Assembly: GCA_965233185.1 (NCBI GenBank)
Contig: CBDDSA010000092.1
Span: 1,270 to 65,269 of the forward strand
Direction: 5' to 3'
Length of the DNA: 64,000 bases
DNA from: an uncultured bacterium
GTDB lineage: Bacteria > Pseudomonadota > Gammaproteobacteria > Burkholderiales > SG8-39
Made by a program: the position numbers and the translations under genes. The notes beneath the pieces are model-generated. The model ran no database searches, was not told the origin of the DNA, and saw only the letters and a list, made by a program, of their open reading frames with translations. Shown one piece after another: positions 11,038-27,752 of the stretch. Every line of letters begins with the position of its first letter. The stretch's first letter is position 1.

Positions 11038-11253
11038 CGGCCGCATGATGACGCACCGCTCAATTCTCTCCACCGGCCTTCTCCTGGCCGGCGCGGTCGC
11101 GCGCATCGTACGCATTCCGGGCACGCTGGCCTGTCCTGGCCAGGCCCGGTAACCGCCACCCGCACACGCCGCTAGCCGCGGCGCGCCGAGGGTGGCCGGA
11201 TACCGGGGCCTTTCCCTGAAAACTCTTTTCCTCTTTTCAAGGATGGATGCGCT

Positions 11254-11673
11254 ATGGCTTATGCCCAAGAACTGCTTCTCGTCTCGGCGCGCGACGCCGA
11301 AACGCTCGCCTCGGTGCTCGGCGAACGCGGACGCATGTCCGCGGACGCGGACGCCGCCAACGCCCTGGCCGACCTGCTGATGGAAGCGCAGCTCGTGCCC
11401 CACGAGCGGCTGCCGCAGGACCGCGTCGCCATGAATTCGCGCGTGACCTACGTGGAGGAGCCGGGCGGCGCGCGGCGCACCATCGTCCTGGTGCACCCGG
11501 CGCAGGCCGACGCCGCCGCCGGGCGCATTTCCGTGCTTTCACCGATCGGGCGCGCGCTCATCGGGCGGCAGCCCGGCGCCACCATCGACGCCGGCGGCCC
11601 GCTCGGCCGCAAGCTGCGCATCCGGGTGCTTTCGGCCGAGAGCGCGGCCGAGGAGGCGCCTCATGCATCCTGA
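11254..11673 (+). CDS. rnk: regulator of nucleoside diphosphate kinase (Rnk), GreA/GreB C-terminal-domain family
   Basis: 139-aa ORF. VAMNSRVTY and ISVLSPIGRALIG match the E. coli Rnk motifs VTMNSRV and LSVMAPVGAALLG as I recall them. Confidence 0.8.
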   Translation: MAYAQELLLVSARDAETLASVLGERGRMSADADAANALADLLMEAQLVPHERLPQDRVAMNSRVTYVEEPGGARRTIVLVHPAQADAAAGRISVLSPIGRALIGRQPGATIDAGGPLGRKLRIRVLSAESAAEEAPHAS

Positions 11674-13248: not shown

Positions 13249-14073
13249 ATGATCAACACTGCCCTTACCCGGATGTTCGGCTTGCGCTACCCGATAGCGC
13301 TCGCGCCCATGGGAAGCATCGCCGGCGGCCGGCTGGCGGCGGCGGTGTCCGAAGCCGGGGGGCTGGGCCTGGTGGGCGGCGGCTACGGCGATGCCGCGTG
13401 GCTGCGCACCGAGCTCGCGCTCGTGAAACAGCACACGCAGCGGCCCTGGGGCGTCGGGTTGATCACCTGGTCGGTCGATCGCAGCGCGGTCGAGGTTGCG
13501 CTCGGCTTCCGGCCGCACGCTTTTGTGCTGTCGTTCGGCGACCCGAGGCCGTATGCGGAGCTGATCAAGTCGGCCGGCTGCAAGCTCATCTGCCAGGTGC
13601 AGGACCTCGAGGGCGCGCGGCTGGCGCAGGCAGCCTCGGCTGACCTCATCGTGGCGCAGGGCACGGAGGCCGGCGGCCACGGCGGCGCGAGAGCCACGCT
13701 GCCGCTGGTGCCGGCGGTGGTGGATGCGGTGCAGCCCACGCCGGTGGTGGCTGCCGGCGGCATAGCCGACGGCCGCGGGCTCGCCGCCGCGCTGATGCTG
13801 GGCGCCTGCGGCGCGCTTGTCGGCACGCGCTTCTATGCCACGCCTGAATCGCTTGCCGACCCTGCGGCGAAGCGGCGCATCGTCGAGGCGCAGGACCACG
13901 CCACGGCGCGTACCCGCATGTTCGACGTGGTGCGCGGCCTGGGCTGGCCGGCCGCGTATACCGGACGGGCGCTGCGCAACCCGTTCATGCGCCGCTGGGA
14001 CGGCCGCGAGTCCGAGCTGGCGGCGGATCTGCAGCCGAACCTGTCCGCGTACCGAGAAATGAGCGCGCGATGA
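13249..14073 (+). CDS. nitronate monooxygenase (NMO, 2-nitropropane dioxygenase family)
   Basis: 274-aa ORF containing PIALAPMG, AQGTEAGGH and VVAAGGIADGRG. It looks shorter than I would expect for this family. Confidence 0.8.
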   Translation: MINTALTRMFGLRYPIALAPMGSIAGGRLAAAVSEAGGLGLVGGGYGDAAWLRTELALVKQHTQRPWGVGLITWSVDRSAVEVALGFRPHAFVLSFGDPRPYAELIKSAGCKLICQVQDLEGARLAQAASADLIVAQGTEAGGHGGARATLPLVPAVVDAVQPTPVVAAGGIADGRGLAAALMLGACGALVGTRFYATPESLADPAAKRRIVEAQDHATARTRMFDVVRGLGWPAAYTGRALRNPFMRRWDGRESELAADLQPNLSAYREMSAR

Positions 14074-14480
14074 GTCGCGAAGCATACGCACGGCTGCTCA
14101 ACCTGCTGCTGGAATGCGAGCGCGCCGGCGCCAAGCTGCTCGCCGCTTACTGCGACGAGCTGCCGCCGCGGTCAGACTCCTACGCCCGGCTCAGCATGAT
14201 CCAGCGCGACGAGGCGCGCAACTGCTCGATCCTGATCCACCTGCTGCTCGACGAAGGCTTCGAGCCGAGCACCGCGGTGGGCACGTTCTACGAACGCGGC
14301 CTCGCGCTACGCGGCTGGCGCGAGCGCCTCGATTTCCTCAACCGCGGGCAGCAATGGGTGGCCGAACGCATTGCCGCGGCGCTGCCGGGACTGTCGGAAT
14401 ACGCAGGCAGGCGGGCCTTGCAGGCTATGTACGACTCGCACCTCGAGAACATCCGCGTGTGCGAAGAGCAGCTTTGCTGA
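14070..14480 (+). CDS. ferritin-like four-helix-bundle protein (DUF6306-like)
   Basis: 136-aa ORF with an ATGA overlap with the NMO gene. Contains LLNLLLECERAGAKLL and MIQRDEARNC helices. Confidence 0.5.
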   Translation: MSREAYARLLNLLLECERAGAKLLAAYCDELPPRSDSYARLSMIQRDEARNCSILIHLLLDEGFEPSTAVGTFYERGLALRGWRERLDFLNRGQQWVAERIAAALPGLSEYAGRRALQAMYDSHLENIRVCEEQLC

Positions 14481-15324
14481 CATCGACCACCAGGCCCGGG
14501 TTGAACAGCGCATTCTCGTTCACGCCGTTCTTCGCGTAGCCGCGCGGGTTGCACACCACGCGCGTGCCATTCACGCGGTAGTCGAAGCTGTCGTGCGTAT
14601 GCCCGTGCACCCAGAGCTGGCAGCGGCTGCCCTCGAGCAGGTGCTCGGCATCGGAAACGAAGCACGCGTTCAGCAGCGAGCCGGCGAACCGCGGATGGAT
14701 GCTCCGCCGAGAGGGCGCATGGTGCGTGACCACCACGGTCGGCCCGGCGTGCGGCTCGGCGAGCTTGCGCTCGAGCCATGCGGCGTTCCGCGCAAATAGC
14801 GTGGCCGAATCCTCGGGCGTGAACGCCTCGATCCTGGCGAAGTCGCGAATCAAGCGCGAGGCTTCGCGCATCGCCTGCGCGCGCCCGGCGCCATCGCCGA
14901 GCAGCCGAAAGTCGCTCCACAGCGTGCTGCCCAGAAAGCGCACGCCGCCAAGGAGGAGCTCGTCGTTGTCGAGCACGTGCACCGGCGAGCCGGCGCACAG
15001 CCGCCTGAGCTCGCTCACGGTGCCGGCGAGGCTCCCGCCGTAGAACTCATGGTTGCCGGGAACATAGAGCACCGGCTTGCCGAAGCCCGCGGCCCAGGCG
15101 GCCGATGCCTCGGGGCGGGCAATGTCACCGGCCAGGATCACCGCATCGGCGTTCGCCGCCGGCACCTCGAGCCCCGCGACGCTCAGGTGCAGGTCCGACA
15201 GGATGTGCAGCCTTACGGCGCTTTCCTCATGCGCGCGGCGCCGGTGGGAATGGGTCCGCCGCGCGCGCTGCGCCGGCCGGACTTCACTTCCTCGTACCAG
15301 ATGTCGTGGTGCTCGCGCGCCCAC
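14425..15324 (-). CDS. metallophosphoesterase
   Basis: Motifs LHILSDLHL, ILAGDI and VPGNHEF...VTHH...HGHTH. The conserved domain begins at 15210, directly after the gamma-subunit stop. The nearest in-frame canonical start is GTG 15324. Confidence 0.7.
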   Translation of the reverse strand: MGARAPRHLVRGSEVRPAQRARRTHSHRRRAHEESAVRLHILSDLHLSVAGLEVPAANADAVILAGDIARPEASAAWAAGFGKPVLYVPGNHEFYGGSLAGTVSELRRLCAGSPVHVLDNDELLLGGVRFLGSTLWSDFRLLGDGAGRAQAMREASRLIRDFARIEAFTPEDSATLFARNAAWLERKLAEPHAGPTVVVTHHAPSRRSIHPRFAGSLLNACFVSDAEHLLEGSRCQLWVHGHTHDSFDYRVNGTRVVCNPRGYAKNGVNENALFNPGLVVDVSKAALRTRGCSRGASRT

Positions 15325-16289
15325 TCTTCGTCGGTCCAGCCGGTGCGCATGTTGCCGTAGGTGCCGGCGACGCCGATCGTGCCGAGATAGATATGCCCGA
15401 GCGATATGGCGATGTAGATCAGCGCGGCGATGGCATGCACCGCCCATGCGTCCTGCATCACGGCGCGCGTCTGGTCGAAGTTCGGGAACAAGAGCACGAC
15501 GCCCGACCAGCTCACCGCGATCGACAATCCCACCACCCCGACCCAGAACCATACCTTCTCGCCGCCGTTGAAGCGCCCGGAAGGCACGTGCTTGCCGCGC
15601 GCCATGTAGGCCCAGGCGTTGGCGAGCCAGCGCAGGTCGTAGGCGCGCGGGAAGTTGTCCTTGACGTACACCAGGATCATCGCCAGCACCGAGACCATGA
15701 ACAGCGGCGCGATGAAGTTGTGCAGGTTCTTGGCCGCGATGCTGAGCCAGGAAAACAGCGTATAGCCCATCACCGGCAGCAGCACATGCTTGCCGAACAG
15801 CATGATGAGGCCCGAGATGCCGAGCACGCAGAAGCTGATGGCGACCGTCCAGTGCACGATCATCTCGAGGGCCGTGAAGCGCCGCATGAGGCGGCCGCTG
15901 GGCGGATGCTTCAGCTTGAGCGAGCCTTTCCAGGCATAGAAGGCGAGGATGATGAGCGCCACGCCCACCACCAGCCAGCCGCCGTAGAAGGTCACCGGGC
16001 CGTTGCGGAACTGCCGCCAGGCTTCGCCGGCGGTGACGCTCACGTCCTGCCCGAGGAAGCGCGCCGGCGGCTGGATCAGCACCTCCATTTCGCGCCCCGG
16101 CAGGCTGGTGTAGTTCGGCGTGCCCCGCTGCACCTCGCGCCAGACCGGCGCATTGTTTCCCGGCTGCGTGACCTGGCGCTGCTGCTGCGCCTGCTCAGGA
16201 GTGGTGGGCGCGGCATTCTGCTGCGGCGCCTGCTGGGCCGCGGCCGCCCCGGCGAAGGCCAGCGCCAGCGCAACGAGGAACGTCTTCAT
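15213..16289 (-). CDS. formate dehydrogenase gamma (cytochrome b) subunit-like membrane protein with signal peptide and periplasmic extension
   Basis: 358-aa ORF with a signal peptide, four TM helices and conserved His residues (EMIVHWT, NLHNFIAP, AVHAIAALIY, LGHIYLG). Confidence 0.75.
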   Translation of the reverse strand: MKTFLVALALAFAGAAAAQQAPQQNAAPTTPEQAQQQRQVTQPGNNAPVWREVQRGTPNYTSLPGREMEVLIQPPARFLGQDVSVTAGEAWRQFRNGPVTFYGGWLVVGVALIILAFYAWKGSLKLKHPPSGRLMRRFTALEMIVHWTVAISFCVLGISGLIMLFGKHVLLPVMGYTLFSWLSIAAKNLHNFIAPLFMVSVLAMILVYVKDNFPRAYDLRWLANAWAYMARGKHVPSGRFNGGEKVWFWVGVVGLSIAVSWSGVVLLFPNFDQTRAVMQDAWAVHAIAALIYIAISLGHIYLGTIGVAGTYGNMRTGWTDEEWAREHHDIWYEEVKSGRRSARGGPIPTGAARMRKAP

Positions 16290-16576
16290 TGGTAGATTCG
16301 CCTGTATTCGTGCTGCGTGAGCTGGCGGCGCTTGATCTGCTCTTCCCAGCTGCCCTGGTCACCCTGCTTCCATTGCGTGCCGCCGAGCTGCGCCGCCAGC
16401 GGCGCGTTGTCCCAGGGCTTGGTGTCGGCCTTGCCCTGGTAGCGCTTCTCGGACTGGGGCTGCACCACCTGCTCGCGCTCGCCGCACGCCGCGAGCCCGA
16501 GGAGCGCCGCGCAAAGGAGGGACACCGCTATGCGGCCGTAGTGGTGTTGGCGACAGTCGTCCACGCGCTGCTCCAT
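16286..16576 (-). CDS. small lipoprotein of unknown function
   Basis: ATG 16576 (GTG 16525 is an alternative start). Lipobox LLGLAAC. ATGA overlap with the gamma-subunit start. Confidence 0.5.
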   Translation of the reverse strand: MEQRVDDCRQHHYGRIAVSLLCAALLGLAACGEREQVVQPQSEKRYQGKADTKPWDNAPLAAQLGGTQWKQGDQGSWEEQIKRRQLTQHEYRRIYQ

Positions 16577-16638
16577 GCAAAGCCCTGTGAACCCGGAGGC
16601 GCCCCGAAGTTCCTCGACTGCCGTCACGCAATTGCAGT

Positions 16639-16890
16639 TCAAGACTTGCCTGCGGCCGGCTGGGCGGGCTGCAGTGGTCCCGACCCCGCTCCAGGCCGGC
16701 CCGGCCCGTAGGCCGTGCCCCAGCCCCACACTTCGGAGCCCTTGCCGCGGCGCAGCACCCGCTCGCGGTAGATATCGGCGATCACGTCGCCGTCACCGCC
16801 CAGCAGCGCCTTGGTGGAGCACATCTCGGCGCACGCCGGCAGCTTGCCCTCGGCCAGGCGGTTGCGGCCGTATTTCTTGAACTCGGCGTC
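16639..16890 (-). pseudogene. 3' remnant of a 4Fe-4S (formate dehydrogenase beta-like) subunit gene
   Basis: The frame reads ...DAEFKKYGRNRLAEGKLPACAEMCSTKALLGGDGDVIADIYRERVLRRG..., which is the last Cys-cluster region only. There is no start codon and the N-terminal clusters are absent. Confidence 0.6.
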
Positions 16891-17876
16891 GCGGGCGGAC
16901 GCGGCGCGGGGATGGCGAGCTGATAGAAGTGCAGCGCCGCGAGCTTGGATGTGACCACATCGGGCGTACCGCGCGTATCGAAAGAGCCGGTCTTCGCCGA
17001 CACGGGAAATTGCTGCGCGTCAGCCAGGCGCGCGTCGAAGAAGGTGCCCGAGCCGTGCTGCTGCGTCACCGCGACATAGGCGTTCCAGTACGGCACCGAC
17101 CCCGAGCCGGTCCAGGTGTGCAGGTTCACCCCGGCCAGGCCAAAGGCGGGCGGAATCAGCGTGCCTGCCTGGCCTCCATCCGGCCGGAAAGCCTTGCCGT
17201 CCTTGTCCAGCCAGGCGTCGTAGCGGCCCGGGCCCCAGCTCGCCAGCACTTTCCTCACCGTCGCCTCGTCGACCCCCAGCGCATCGGTGAACGGCTTGAG
17301 GTTCGGCGCGAGCGAGACGATGACGCCGACATTCAGATCGCGGTTGGCCCAGCCGTCCAGGCGCTTGCCTATGCCGGGCGCGAACGAGTCGTCCACGTTC
17401 GAATGGCACAGGGCGCATTGGGTGCCCAAAGACTTGATCCGGCCTGCCTCGTCGAACCGTCCCGTCAGTCCCACCACGGCGTTGAGCCTGAGCAGGGCGA
17501 GCGTCGTCGCCGGGTCGTCGAGATCCACTTTGCCGGCGCGGATGCGTGCTTTCAGCTCGGCCGGAAGCGCCTCCGCATCCACCTTGAGGCCGACCGCCAG
17601 CGCGGTCTTCGGGCTGACTCCCGCACCGACGCCGCCGTTTTGCGCACCGGCGATGGCCTTGTGCAACTGCAAGGCATCGCCGAAAAAGGCTTCCGAGCCA
17701 TAGGTGTCGAAGCGGAAGATGTTTCTGCCCGCCTCGAGCAGCCGCTGCGCATGGCCGTTGATCTGCCGATCGTTTTTCGACAGCTCCTTCTTGTCCGTGG
17801 CGCCGACCACGCCCAGCATGGCAAGCACGACCAGTGATGCTGCGCCCGCACCCGCGGCGACCGCTCCAACTTTCAT
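16782..17876 (-). CDS. cytochrome c peroxidase-like periplasmic haem protein, apparently 3'-truncated
   Basis: AAGGGAGG Shine-Dalgarno before ATG 17876, a signal peptide and a single CALCH haem motif. Homology-like sequence ends near LHFYQLAIPAPRPP (about 16895). The remaining tail is the off-frame Fe-S remnant. Confidence 0.6.
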   Translation of the reverse strand: MKVGAVAAGAGAASLVVLAMLGVVGATDKKELSKNDRQINGHAQRLLEAGRNIFRFDTYGSEAFFGDALQLHKAIAGAQNGGVGAGVSPKTALAVGLKVDAEALPAELKARIRAGKVDLDDPATTLALLRLNAVVGLTGRFDEAGRIKSLGTQCALCHSNVDDSFAPGIGKRLDGWANRDLNVGVIVSLAPNLKPFTDALGVDEATVRKVLASWGPGRYDAWLDKDGKAFRPDGGQAGTLIPPAFGLAGVNLHTWTGSGSVPYWNAYVAVTQQHGSGTFFDARLADAQQFPVSAKTGSFDTRGTPDVVTSKLAALHFYQLAIPAPRPPATPSSRNTAATAWPRASCRRAPRCAPPRRCWAVTAT

Positions 17877-17890
17877 ATGAACCTCCCTTT

Positions 17891-18583
17891 CTAGTAACCG
17901 TAGAACTGTTCGCTGCGCACGTCGTGGTCGCCGACGCCTGCGCCGCGCAGAAGGGTCTTCATCGCGCCCACCATGCCGGGGGGACCGGCGAGGTAGTAAA
18001 GCGGCGCGGCTGCGTCGGCGACGAAGCACTTCACCGTCTGCGCATCGACGAAGCCGTCGGCGTCGGTCATCCTGGCCAGCAGGCGGAAGCTGCCGTTTTG
18101 CTGCGCCAGGCGCTGCAGCTCGGCGAGGAATGCCGCATCCTGCGGCCGGCGGTTGGAGTAGAGCAGGTACAAGGGCCGGGCGAGCCCGTCATGCGCGGCC
18201 TGCCGCAGCATGCTCAGGAAAGGCGTGATGCCGATGCCGCCGGCGATGAATACCGCGGCCCGGGAAGCCTCCTCGTGCAGCGTCATCAGGCCGCGCGGCC
18301 CCTTGAGCCGGATGCGGGAACCGGCGGGCAGCGCCTTCAGCGCGCGCTTGAACGCGCTGCCTTCGCGCATGCGCGTGGCGATGAGGAGCTCGCCCTCGCA
18401 AGGGGCGCCCGCCAGCGAGAAGATGCGCTGCGCGCTGTTCGGCTCGGGCGGCGGCTCGAGCAGGGAAAGGGTCACCGATTGCCCGGCCTTGAAGTCGAAG
18501 CCCGCCGGCCTGGACAGGTGGAACGCCAGGGTGCCCGCGGCGACCTCTTCGGCGCCCCGGACGAGGACCTCGTGCGAGGTCAA
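17891..18583 (-). CDS. FNR-family FAD/NAD(P)-binding oxidoreductase
   Basis: 230-aa ORF with RIFSLAG (FAD site) and FIAGGIGITPF (NAD(P) site). Confidence 0.8.
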   Translation of the reverse strand: MTSHEVLVRGAEEVAAGTLAFHLSRPAGFDFKAGQSVTLSLLEPPPEPNSAQRIFSLAGAPCEGELLIATRMREGSAFKRALKALPAGSRIRLKGPRGLMTLHEEASRAAVFIAGGIGITPFLSMLRQAAHDGLARPLYLLYSNRRPQDAAFLAELQRLAQQNGSFRLLARMTDADGFVDAQTVKCFVADAAAPLYYLAGPPGMVGAMKTLLRGAGVGDHDVRSEQFYGY

Positions 18584-18825
18584 AACGAGCGGATGCCGGG
18601 AAGCGCTTCCTTCAGCTCGTGGCGCTTTCCTTCTTCGTCATACCAGTAAAGCTTGCCGGGCTCCTCGCCGGCCGTGAGCTCATGGGAGCTGTCGCAGAAC
18701 GGCTGGTTCTCCGACAGCCCGCACTTGCACAGCCACTGCTCCTTGCCGTCGATATTGAAGGGGTGGGTTCGGTTGCGGTGCGCTTTACGATGCGTGCCAT
18801 GCCTGGCTCCTTGGAGGTTAGGCAT
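18580..18825 (-). CDS. CDGSH iron-sulfur domain protein (probable true start 18800, with a one-base frameshift)
   Basis: CKCGLSENQPFCDSSH motif. The ORF-track ATG 18825 lacks a Shine-Dalgarno and lies inside lysR. ATG 18800 has AAGGAG 6 nt upstream and reads MARIVKRTATEP, but it is out of frame at the G4 run 18760-18763. Confidence 0.7.
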   Translation of the reverse strand: MPNLQGARHGTHRKAHRNRTHPFNIDGKEQWLCKCGLSENQPFCDSSHELTAGEEPGKLYWYDEEGKRHELKEALPGIRSF

Positions 18826-20858: not shown

Positions 20859-21343
20859 ATCCCGAGGCCTTCGCGCGGCTCATGCGGCGCCACAACCGGA
20901 CGCTGTTCCGCACCGCGCGCGCCATCCTGCGCGACGGCGCCGCGGCGGAGGACGCGCTGCAGGAAGCGTGGCTGCGCGCCTACCATGCGATCGATACGTT
21001 TCGCGGCGAGGCAAAGCTCGGTACCTGGCTGGTGCGCATCGTCGTCAACGAGGCGCTGGCACGCCGCCGGAAGGACCAGCGCCATGTCCCGGTCGTGCAG
21101 GAAACCGAGCAAGCCATCCTCAAGCAGGACGAGCCCGAAGGCCTGGCGCAGCGCAGCGAGCTGCGGCGCCGGCTGGAAGCGAAGATTCGCCTCCTGCCGG
21201 ATCCCTTCCGTGCGGTGTTCATGCTGCGCGCAGTGGAAGAGCTTTCGGTCCACGAGACCGCGGCCGCATTGCATATCCCTGAGTCGACGGTCCGAACCCG
21301 GTTTTTCCGCGCGCGCAGAGAGCTGCGCGCGCGGCTCTCCTGA
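20855..21343 (+). CDS. ECF-type RNA polymerase sigma-70 factor (short paralogue)
   Basis: ATGA overlap with the CBS gene. 162 codons. Sigma2 region DALQEAWLRAYHAIDTFRGEAKLGTWLVRIVVNEA and sigma4 region LSVHETAAALHIPESTVRTRFFRARREL. Confidence 0.85.
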   Translation: MNPEAFARLMRRHNRTLFRTARAILRDGAAAEDALQEAWLRAYHAIDTFRGEAKLGTWLVRIVVNEALARRRKDQRHVPVVQETEQAILKQDEPEGLAQRSELRRRLEAKIRLLPDPFRAVFMLRAVEELSVHETAAALHIPESTVRTRFFRARRELRARLS

Positions 21344-27064: not shown

Positions 27065-27752
27065 GGCCATGAAAACCGCCATTCGCGAGGAAGCCGCCGA
27101 GCGGCTGACCGACACGGAGCTCATCCACCGGACCCAGGCGGGCGACATGCGGGCCCTGGAGGCCCTGATGCGCCGCCATAACCGCACGCTTTACCGGACG
27201 GCGCGAGCCATCCTGCGGGACGACGCCGAGGCCGAGGATGTCGTCCAGGAAGCCTATCTCAAGGCCTACAAGGCGCTCGGATCGTTCCGCGCCGAGTCCA
27301 AGCTGTCCACCTGGCTGGTGCGCATCGCCGCCAACAAGGCGCTCATGCGCCGCCGCAAGAACGCCCGCACCGCGGCCGTGGTGCCGATGGATGCGGCTGC
27401 CGCGGGCGCGCAATGGGAAGAACCTATGTCCGACGAAGCCGGTCCCGAACGCAATGCCCTCGGCGGCGAAATGCGCGAGCTGCTGGAAAAGCGCATCGAT
27501 GCCCTGCCCGATGGCTACCGCGCGGTGTTCGTGCTGCGCGCGCTGGAAGAGCTCACCGTGGAGGAAACGGCCGCGGCGCTGGACATTCCGGAGGCGACGG
27601 TGCGCACGCGCTACTTTCGCGCGCGCGGCCTGCTGCGCGAATCGCTGGCACGCGACATCGACCGCAGCCTCGAGGATGCCTTCGCCTTCGCCGGCGCGCG
27701 CTGCGATCGCATCGTCACCAACGTGCTCGAGAGGATCAAGGCGGGAACGTAA
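27063..27752 (+). CDS. ECF-type sigma-70 factor with a roughly 55-aa C-terminal extension
   Basis: The sigma2 and sigma4 regions are paralogous to 20855..21343. The extra tail is ESLARDIDRSLEDAFAFAGARCDRIVTNVLERIKAGT. The start may be ATG 27069. Confidence 0.85.
   Translation: MAMKTAIREEAAERLTDTELIHRTQAGDMRALEALMRRHNRTLYRTARAILRDDAEAEDVVQEAYLKAYKALGSFRAESKLSTWLVRIAANKALMRRRKNARTAAVVPMDAAAAGAQWEEPMSDEAGPERNALGGEMRELLEKRIDALPDGYRAVFVLRALEELTVEETAAALDIPEATVRTRYFRARGLLRESLARDIDRSLEDAFAFAGARCDRIVTNVLERIKAGT

Follow-up and report, generated by a model that had tools for sequence, protein, structure and literature searches.

On the minus strand of a 64,000-nt stretch of DNA from an uncultured bacterium of the Burkholderiales (the window, i.e. 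the whole stretch that was analysed), an ORF with one haem site runs into sequence which, in another frame, resembles the end of a formate dehydrogenase gene, and the question is how the two came to lie together: through a deletion in the cells, through an error of assembly, or through no event at all, the haem protein being naturally short. A sequence-only reading of this DNA had proposed that a deletion or a chimera took the haem gene's 3' end and, from a formate dehydrogenase operon, the alpha gene and the greater part of the beta gene, and the gene order of three related contigs (L001, L006 and L010, described below) agrees with this proposal. The features of the locus are collected in Table 1. 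We regard a recent and real deletion of ~6–9 kb, joining codon 328 of the haem gene to approximately codon 133 of the beta gene, as the probable explanation.

Table 1. Features around the join, in positions of the window
Feature	Position	Strand	Basis
Zf-CDGSH gene	18580-18825	-	Usual haem-gene neighbour, co-directional
NAD_binding_1/FNR-like gene	17891-18583	-	Usual haem-gene neighbour, co-directional
Truncated di-haem cytochrome c family gene, 5' remnant, codons 1-328 of ~450 aa	16893..17876	-	Homologue alignment
Junction of the probable deletion	16892..16893	.	Three-way alignments with the relatives' haem and beta genes; GC3 phase
Read-through tail of the haem ORF, out of frame, 36 non-homologous codons (ATPSSRNTAATAWPRASCRRAPRCAPPRRCWAVTAT) and stop	16782..16892	-	Translation
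FDH3-type formate dehydrogenase beta (4Fe-4S), 3' remnant, ~residues 133-211	16639..16892	-	NF038355 and tblastn
Small lipoprotein gene, intact, 96 aa, lipobox LAAC	16286..16576	-	Conserved between beta and gamma in FDH3-type operons
Formate dehydrogenase gamma (cytochrome b) gene, intact, 358 aa	15213..16289	-	TIGR01583, Pfam Ni_hydr_CYTB

The haem ORF reads from 17876 to 16782 on the minus strand (364 aa), its start lying 6 nt after a GGGAGG ribosome-binding site, and contains a single haem site, CALCH, at residues 154–158, as had been noticed from the letters alone. The family is large, with at least 8000 homologues, and every scored candidate was significant; the length was 430–470 aa in the best 119 of these at least 8000 proteins (the window's own protein excluded). 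At the DNA level, the haem remnant is 82–84% identical to the haem genes of the related loci L001 to L007, and this identity stops exactly at 16893. In the protein alignment, identity is kept to ...LAIPAPRPP, i.e. to residue 328 of the haem ORF (base 16893), beyond which the ORF has 36 unrelated Arg/Ala/Pro-rich codons, whereas the homologues run for ~115 residues more and include a second CxxCH ~25 residues past the break as well as a conserved C-terminus. The relatives have two CxxCH sites (CALCH/CAFCH plus CATCH/CAACH) and the window copy has one; at the DNA level, their intact 3' end continues past the position of 16893 as ...AAGG(G/A)CAGCTTCGAC.... Both the change from protein-like to Arg/Ala/Pro-rich sequence, which had been placed at about 16895 with the stop at 16782, and the existence of longer homologues with a second haem site, which had been stated along with it, are thereby borne out. 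Nor do the orthologues naturally end here with one haem site, an outcome that the sequence-only reading had named as one that would speak against it: residue 440 or beyond (of 458) was reached in 81 of 87 related haem loci, of the remaining six, four run into a contig end, and none of the 87 stops at the junction.

The haem protein had been described as cytochrome-c-peroxidase-like, of which only a distant resemblance stands, and this resemblance lies in the deleted domain. No curated family model matched the 328 N-terminal residues that are retained, and the window protein gave no match to PF03150 or TIGR03791. Full-length relatives scored 34.6 bits against the MauG model TIGR03791 (E 1e-8; cut-off 443.85), 17.0 bits against Pfam CCP_MauG (PF03150; E 0.0095; cut-off 25.6) and, also below threshold, E 0.021 against DHOR. 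All these sub-threshold MauG/CCP-like matches fall in the C-terminal domain, the part deleted here. The best match of the family in a sequence profile search of the PDB was hydrazine synthase gamma (E 0.12), the rest being worse, and an AlphaFold2 model of one relative (P0002) had a mean pLDDT of 34.7, unusable for a fold search. Full-length relatives are like the di-haem cytochrome c peroxidases and MauG in having two CxxCH sites, of which the window protein has one, and in the terminal motif ...HDG..TL....L..E...L.EYLKSL of their C-terminal domain; they are unlike them in that the family scores far below the cut-offs and has an N-terminal domain of ~345 aa that belongs to no family, and in the window copy the MauG-like domain is entirely gone. 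The family can best be regarded as di-haem cytochromes c, as yet uncharacterised, of which the second domain is distantly similar to MauG/CCP. Its members were found in Burkholderiales, Acidobacteriota and Alphaproteobacteria.

A zf-CDGSH gene and a gene for an NAD_binding_1 (FNR-like) reductase often adjoin the di-haem gene (L001–L005, L009, L013, L014, L016, L020, L024, L026–L028 and others), and the frequency of this adjacency suggests a conserved redox trio. In the window, the same two genes stand in the same order as in L001–L004, L009, L013 and L014, and the spacer between the FNR-like gene and the start of the haem gene (17877–17890) is 14 nt. The corresponding interval of L001–L004 also contains patatin and TetR genes (L001 8210–10000), and that of L009, L013 and L014 a patatin gene; since the gene boundaries are clean, this difference looks like ordinary variation in gene content.

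One base off the haem frame, the DNA from 16893 to 16639 encodes RDAEFKKYGRNRLAEGKLPACAEMCSTKALLGGDGDVIADIYRERVLRRG... and translates as RDAEFKKYGRNRLAEGKLPACAEMCSTKALLGGDGDVIADIYRERVLRRGKGSEVWGWGTAYGPG...KS*. The native stop of a beta gene is kept, and the only start codon is an internal ATG at 16824. The sequence-only reading had taken this frame, ending at 16639, for the last Cys-cluster segment and tail of a 4Fe-4S beta subunit, and the NCBIfam model FDH3_beta (NF038355) agrees, with a match to model positions 131–180 of 180 (E 9e-20, 71.4 bits). The curated cut-off of this equivalog model is 240 bits, which the intact beta of L006 exceeds (342.7 bits) and the remnant, being far from full length, does not reach. 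When the L006 beta (211 aa) was searched against the window by tblastn, residues 133–211 were matched with 82% identity (E 7e-40), so that the lack of similarity to beta subunits, another outcome that had been named in advance as damaging, was not observed. At the DNA level the identity to the beta genes of L006 and L089 is 91–92% (91.7% in one) from 16892 on. The L006 beta has four Cys clusters (CIECNGCVTAC, CMHCSDAPCMAVCP, CIGCGYCFYACP and CTFC...CAEMC), of which only ...PACAEMC is left in the window, where ~37% of beta survives. By these comparisons, the Fe-S frame descends from a beta gene.

We also considered whether the frame could be a natural small C-terminal beta-like protein, as the 70–145-aa proteins in the databases might suggest, and rejected this. 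P0121 is a fragment cut by a contig end, P0142 is a frameshifted gene on a noisy contig on which the alpha gene is also in pieces, and the other short matches lie mostly on contigs of just 1–3 kb. Nearly all beta-like database matches are fragments of this length. Many metagenome contigs start or end within beta, including L001, L089, L090, L091 and those of most beta-like database matches; the FDH3 beta gene is a recurrent break point of metagenome contigs. Its DNA is 91–92% identical between genomes of which the gamma genes are just 67–73% identical. In L088 (2665–6270), a JGI contig of 136 kb, the formate dehydrogenase alpha is in four pieces and beta is fragmented, which is typical of uncorrected long-read frameshifts and not biology.

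The two homologies abut almost to the base. Haem-derived sequence goes as far as base 16893, which closes codon 328, and beta-derived sequence takes over at 16892, with an uncertainty of ~2 nt: in blastn comparisons the haem homology ends at 16893 against L002, L005, L006 and L007, the beta homology begins at 16892 against L006 and L089, and the three-way alignments agree. With codon 328 complete at 16893 and the beta frame displaced by one base, the two fused genes do not share a reading frame. The GC3 periodicity changes from the haem to the beta frame exactly at 16892, and in the tail of the haem ORF the high GC is in phase 1 instead of at the third codon positions of the haem frame; this switch of phase indicates that the tail is beta-derived DNA read in the wrong frame. 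Taken together, these results bear on the reading by which nothing was deleted, the haem protein being short and single-haem by nature and the Fe-S-like frame a chance similarity or a small independent gene. That the ORF stays open to 16782 is the one observation in its favour, and we find this reading scarcely credible against a family in which no homologue ends at this point, a beta similarity of the strength given above, a coding phase that switches at the junction, and short beta-like proteins that, where checked, are products of contig ends or frameshifts or, for most of the others, lie on very short contigs.

In the relatives, the sequences at the two breakpoints have at most a base or two in common, i.e. 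no clear microhomology. A 9-nt BLAST extension of the L090 beta past the junction, which had hinted at microhomology, was rejected as a gapped GC-rich chance match. No repeat, insertion sequence, tRNA gene, Rfam family or tandem repeat was found near the join, and a search for promoter and terminator motifs there gave nothing relevant.

The ancestral arrangement can be read from L001, L006 and L010, related Burkholderiales contigs in which an intact haem gene lies upstream of the position of the beta breakpoint and on the same strand as the FDH3 operon: 1) In L001, a farmland scaffold whose LysR is 95% identical to that of the window, the order CBS/BON, DUF488, LysR, zf-CDGSH, NAD_binding_1, patatin, TetR and haem gene (458 aa) is followed by a sigma-70/GreA-like gene (opposite strand), aconitase, DUF3305, a 66-aa peptide, the molybdopterin alpha (980 aa) and beta, which sits at the contig end. 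2) In L006, downstream of the haem gene come a PAS histidine kinase, small ORFs, DUF3305, DUF3306, a TAT-target peptide (TIGR02811), alpha, beta, an 80-aa gene and gamma. 3) L010 is arranged as L006, in a more compact form. The comparison with relatives, by which the missing length was to be obtained, gave distances between the homologous breakpoints of ~8.9 kb (L001), ~8.0 kb (L006) and ~6.1 kb (L010). Collinearity of the window with L001 extends from the haem gene to ~28.6 kb, and that with L090 and L091 from the beta remnant leftwards; the genes of both flanks lie within one 20-kb region in L006.

Of the deleted content first proposed, alpha, most of beta and the haem 3' end stand, and the list has to be widened: in the relatives, the interval also holds genes other than those of formate dehydrogenase, namely one or more regulators (sigma-70/GreA-like or PAS histidine kinase), an aconitase where the order is of the L001 type, DUF3305 (alone or next to DUF3306) and the TAT-target peptide, before alpha and the 5' part of beta. 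When every interval gene was searched by tblastn against the 64-kb window, no intact beta, aconitase, DUF3305/3306 or TAT-target gene was found, and the alpha subunits of L001 and L006 detected no alpha, so that the earlier statement that the window has neither an alpha nor an intact beta holds for the 64 kb. The sigma-like gene of the interval found only paralogues, elsewhere in the window. Absence of the interval genes, together with the order in the relatives, points to a single simple collinear deletion, the polarity of which is unambiguous since both truncated genes are full length everywhere else. Several sigma-70 region 2/4 paralogues and a stand-alone gene with a GreA_GreB domain are present in the window (20867–21307, 27105–27665 and 11176–11673); some of the paralogues are fused to a GreA/GreB C-terminal domain in relatives, and one gene of this sort is in the interval of L001 and L006 that is deleted here.

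Downstream of the remnant, the coupling of the lipoprotein and gamma genes by an ATGA overlap was confirmed. The lipoprotein, which matched no family model significantly, shares 54–58% identity with its positional counterpart of 80 aa in L006 and L010, and its lipobox, read directly from the sequence (MEQRVDDCRQHHYGRIAVSLLCAALLGLAAC), conforms to [LVI][ASTVI][GAS]C. The gamma subunit passes the equivalog model TIGR01583 (159.1 bits; cut-off 115.85) and, in its cytochrome b561-type domain, matches Pfam Ni_hydr_CYTB (PF01292) with E 1.5e-17; in the window it is now without catalytic partners. Its N-terminus (15900–16289) consists of a signal peptide and an extension of ~130 residues, the match to TIGR01583 starting only at residue 136. 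Between the beta stop and the lipoprotein ATG, the window and L091 have a 62-nt spacer (16577–16641), and L006 and L089 an ATGA overlap of the two genes; the ancestral ...TCATGA corresponds to ...TCTTGA in the window.

The genes fdh3A, fdh3B and fdh3C of Methylorubrum extorquens form a named three-gene set (PMC12445348), and the remains at this locus can be set against FDH3, a formate dehydrogenase of the periplasmic/membrane type (fdh3ABC, NF038355, TIGR01583, TIGR02811), part by part. They are alike in that the beta remnant corresponds to the C-terminal 50 positions of the FDH3_beta model, that gamma passes its model, and that the intact operon of the relatives has the order TAT-target peptide, alpha, beta, lipoprotein and gamma. 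They are unlike in that beta is reduced to ~37% with no start codon of its own and that alpha and the TAT-target peptide are absent, and the 64-kb window does not hold the alpha, beta and gamma set of a three-subunit FDH3-type enzyme. What remains in the window cannot be a formate dehydrogenase.

Whether the deletion happened in cells has to be weighed against an artefact of assembly or library preparation, by which the organism would have an intact haem gene and FDH3 operon and two points 6–9 kb apart would have been mis-joined, either in a chimeric library fragment or by graph simplification at low coverage. Certainty is limited by the origin of the DNA: the source is apparently a metagenome-assembled contig, and the nearest relatives are all soil Burkholderiales MAGs. 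The junction was seen in no other contig searched; a degenerate 37-nt junction pattern had no match in JGI metagenome contigs and one in the window itself, and a lineage-specific degenerate pattern for near-identical strains with an intact haem gene had none. In addition, the exceptional conservation of beta relative to gamma and the many contigs that end inside it suggest that the assembly graph is tangled there, and the remnants look fully functional. Against these points, the breakpoints of the relatives have no common sequence that a de Bruijn assembler could cross, and the lack of a repeat common to both points, by which a graph assembler might mis-join them, favours a real deletion. K-mers spanning a junction must be present in the reads for a k-mer assembler to produce it. 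The join is also direct and collinear, not inverted, and both flanks come from the same kind of genome, with the same GC content and tetranucleotide composition on either side in a test of low power; a chimera of two organisms was rejected on the same low-power comparison. No broken genes were found elsewhere in the window as tested, where nine overlapping ORFs (in four groups) and the metallophosphoesterase ORF, examined as candidate frameshifts, turned out to be separate genes with spurious upstream extensions. On balance, an artefact is possible but less likely, and the deletion is probably present in the cells rather than in the assembly alone.

The remnants also bear on the time of the event. 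The window is 94.8% identical at the DNA level to L091 (GCA_036259215.1). In the beta remnant there are 10 differences between the two, of which 9 are synonymous (dN/dS 0.036); dN/dS is 0.10 for gamma and 0.19 for the lipoprotein. Values of 0.04–0.19 and the lack of frameshifts indicate that the remnants evolved as working genes until very recently, and a deletion without decay would be recent, possibly strain-level. The lack of decay fits such a deletion and an artefact equally.

With a recent real deletion as the preferred explanation, the following course may be proposed. The ancestor would have been a soil bacterium of the Burkholderiales with the di-haem gene a few kb upstream of, and in the same orientation as, an FDH3-type operon that probably had the order DUF3305, TAT-target peptide, molybdopterin alpha, Fe-S beta, small lipoprotein and cytochrome b gamma. 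One deletion of ~6–9 kb by illegitimate recombination, with little or no microhomology, would then have joined haem codon 328 to about beta codon 133, one base out of frame; this mechanism is suggested by the sequence of the join. The haem gene would have been left to encode a truncated one-haem protein with a 36-residue nonsense tail, having lost its MauG/CCP-like second haem domain, and the lipoprotein and gamma genes would persist as intact relics, probably transcribed by read-through from the promoter of the CDGSH, FNR-like and haem genes. Transcription into the scar now probably starts from a promoter of the zf-CDGSH and FNR-like genes, if these are co-transcribed with it as their arrangement suggests, and such read-through into the lipoprotein and gamma genes is plausible because they lie directly downstream on the same strand with no convincing terminator between. 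Gene-inactivating deletions by illegitimate recombination have the same form: one collinear stretch is removed, the breakpoints fall within two genes, the fusion is out of frame, the join is free of mobile elements and repeats, and the genes downstream are orphaned; the present case differs from typical ones in being known from a metagenome-derived contig alone.

The arrangement left behind could be taken for something new. If the deletion is real, the lipoprotein and gamma might have been co-opted, together with the CDGSH protein, the FNR-like reductase and the one-haem protein, into a module for electron transfer at the membrane that would be new: both gamma and the lipoprotein are intact, their dN/dS is low, and all the genes are co-directional with short spacers. 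The dN/dS values, though, cover the whole divergence from L091 and are as low in the non-functional beta remnant, the haem ORF ends in a nonsense tail, and the arrangement is absent from the other genomes compared, so that co-option seems very unlikely. Since the dead beta remnant is equally conserved, the low dN/dS reflects recency rather than selection after the deletion, and the intactness of gamma and the lipoprotein is not evidence of a new function. It is more doubtful still that the deletion was kept because these two genes form a re-wired quinone-linked electron-transfer module independent of formate dehydrogenase. What happened at this locus is either a gene-inactivating deletion of the ordinary kind or a mis-join, with no novel biology or new system.

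If the deletion is real, FDH3 is lost from the strain, since there is no alpha and ~37% of beta is left without a start codon; the strain then has neither an FDH3-type formate dehydrogenase nor the di-haem protein, and the haem ORF and the beta fragment are to be annotated as pseudogenes. In the case of an artefact, the contig has to be split or repaired, since formate oxidation would be wrongly scored as absent when metabolism is inferred from the bin. The significance beyond the genome itself is small.

Further differences from relatives were seen on the downstream side. A metallophosphoesterase gene (14425–15228, minus strand) lies just downstream of gamma and has no canonical start near its conserved N-terminus (..VRLHILSDLHLS) in the window or in L091; in L090 the gene starts at a GTG that lies 14 nt within the end of gamma. 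Against window positions 14839–14972, L091 shows a gap of 135 bp. Compared with L090, which is 87% identical, the window is without a GreA_GreB-like gene (L090 2546–2883; window 14476–14480) and without genes for an acyl/acetyl-CoA synthetase and an Fe-superoxide dismutase (L090 3295–5985; window 14027–14065), which in L090 stand between DUF6306 and NMO. The stretch that contains the main deletion thus looks gene-poor relative to its relatives.
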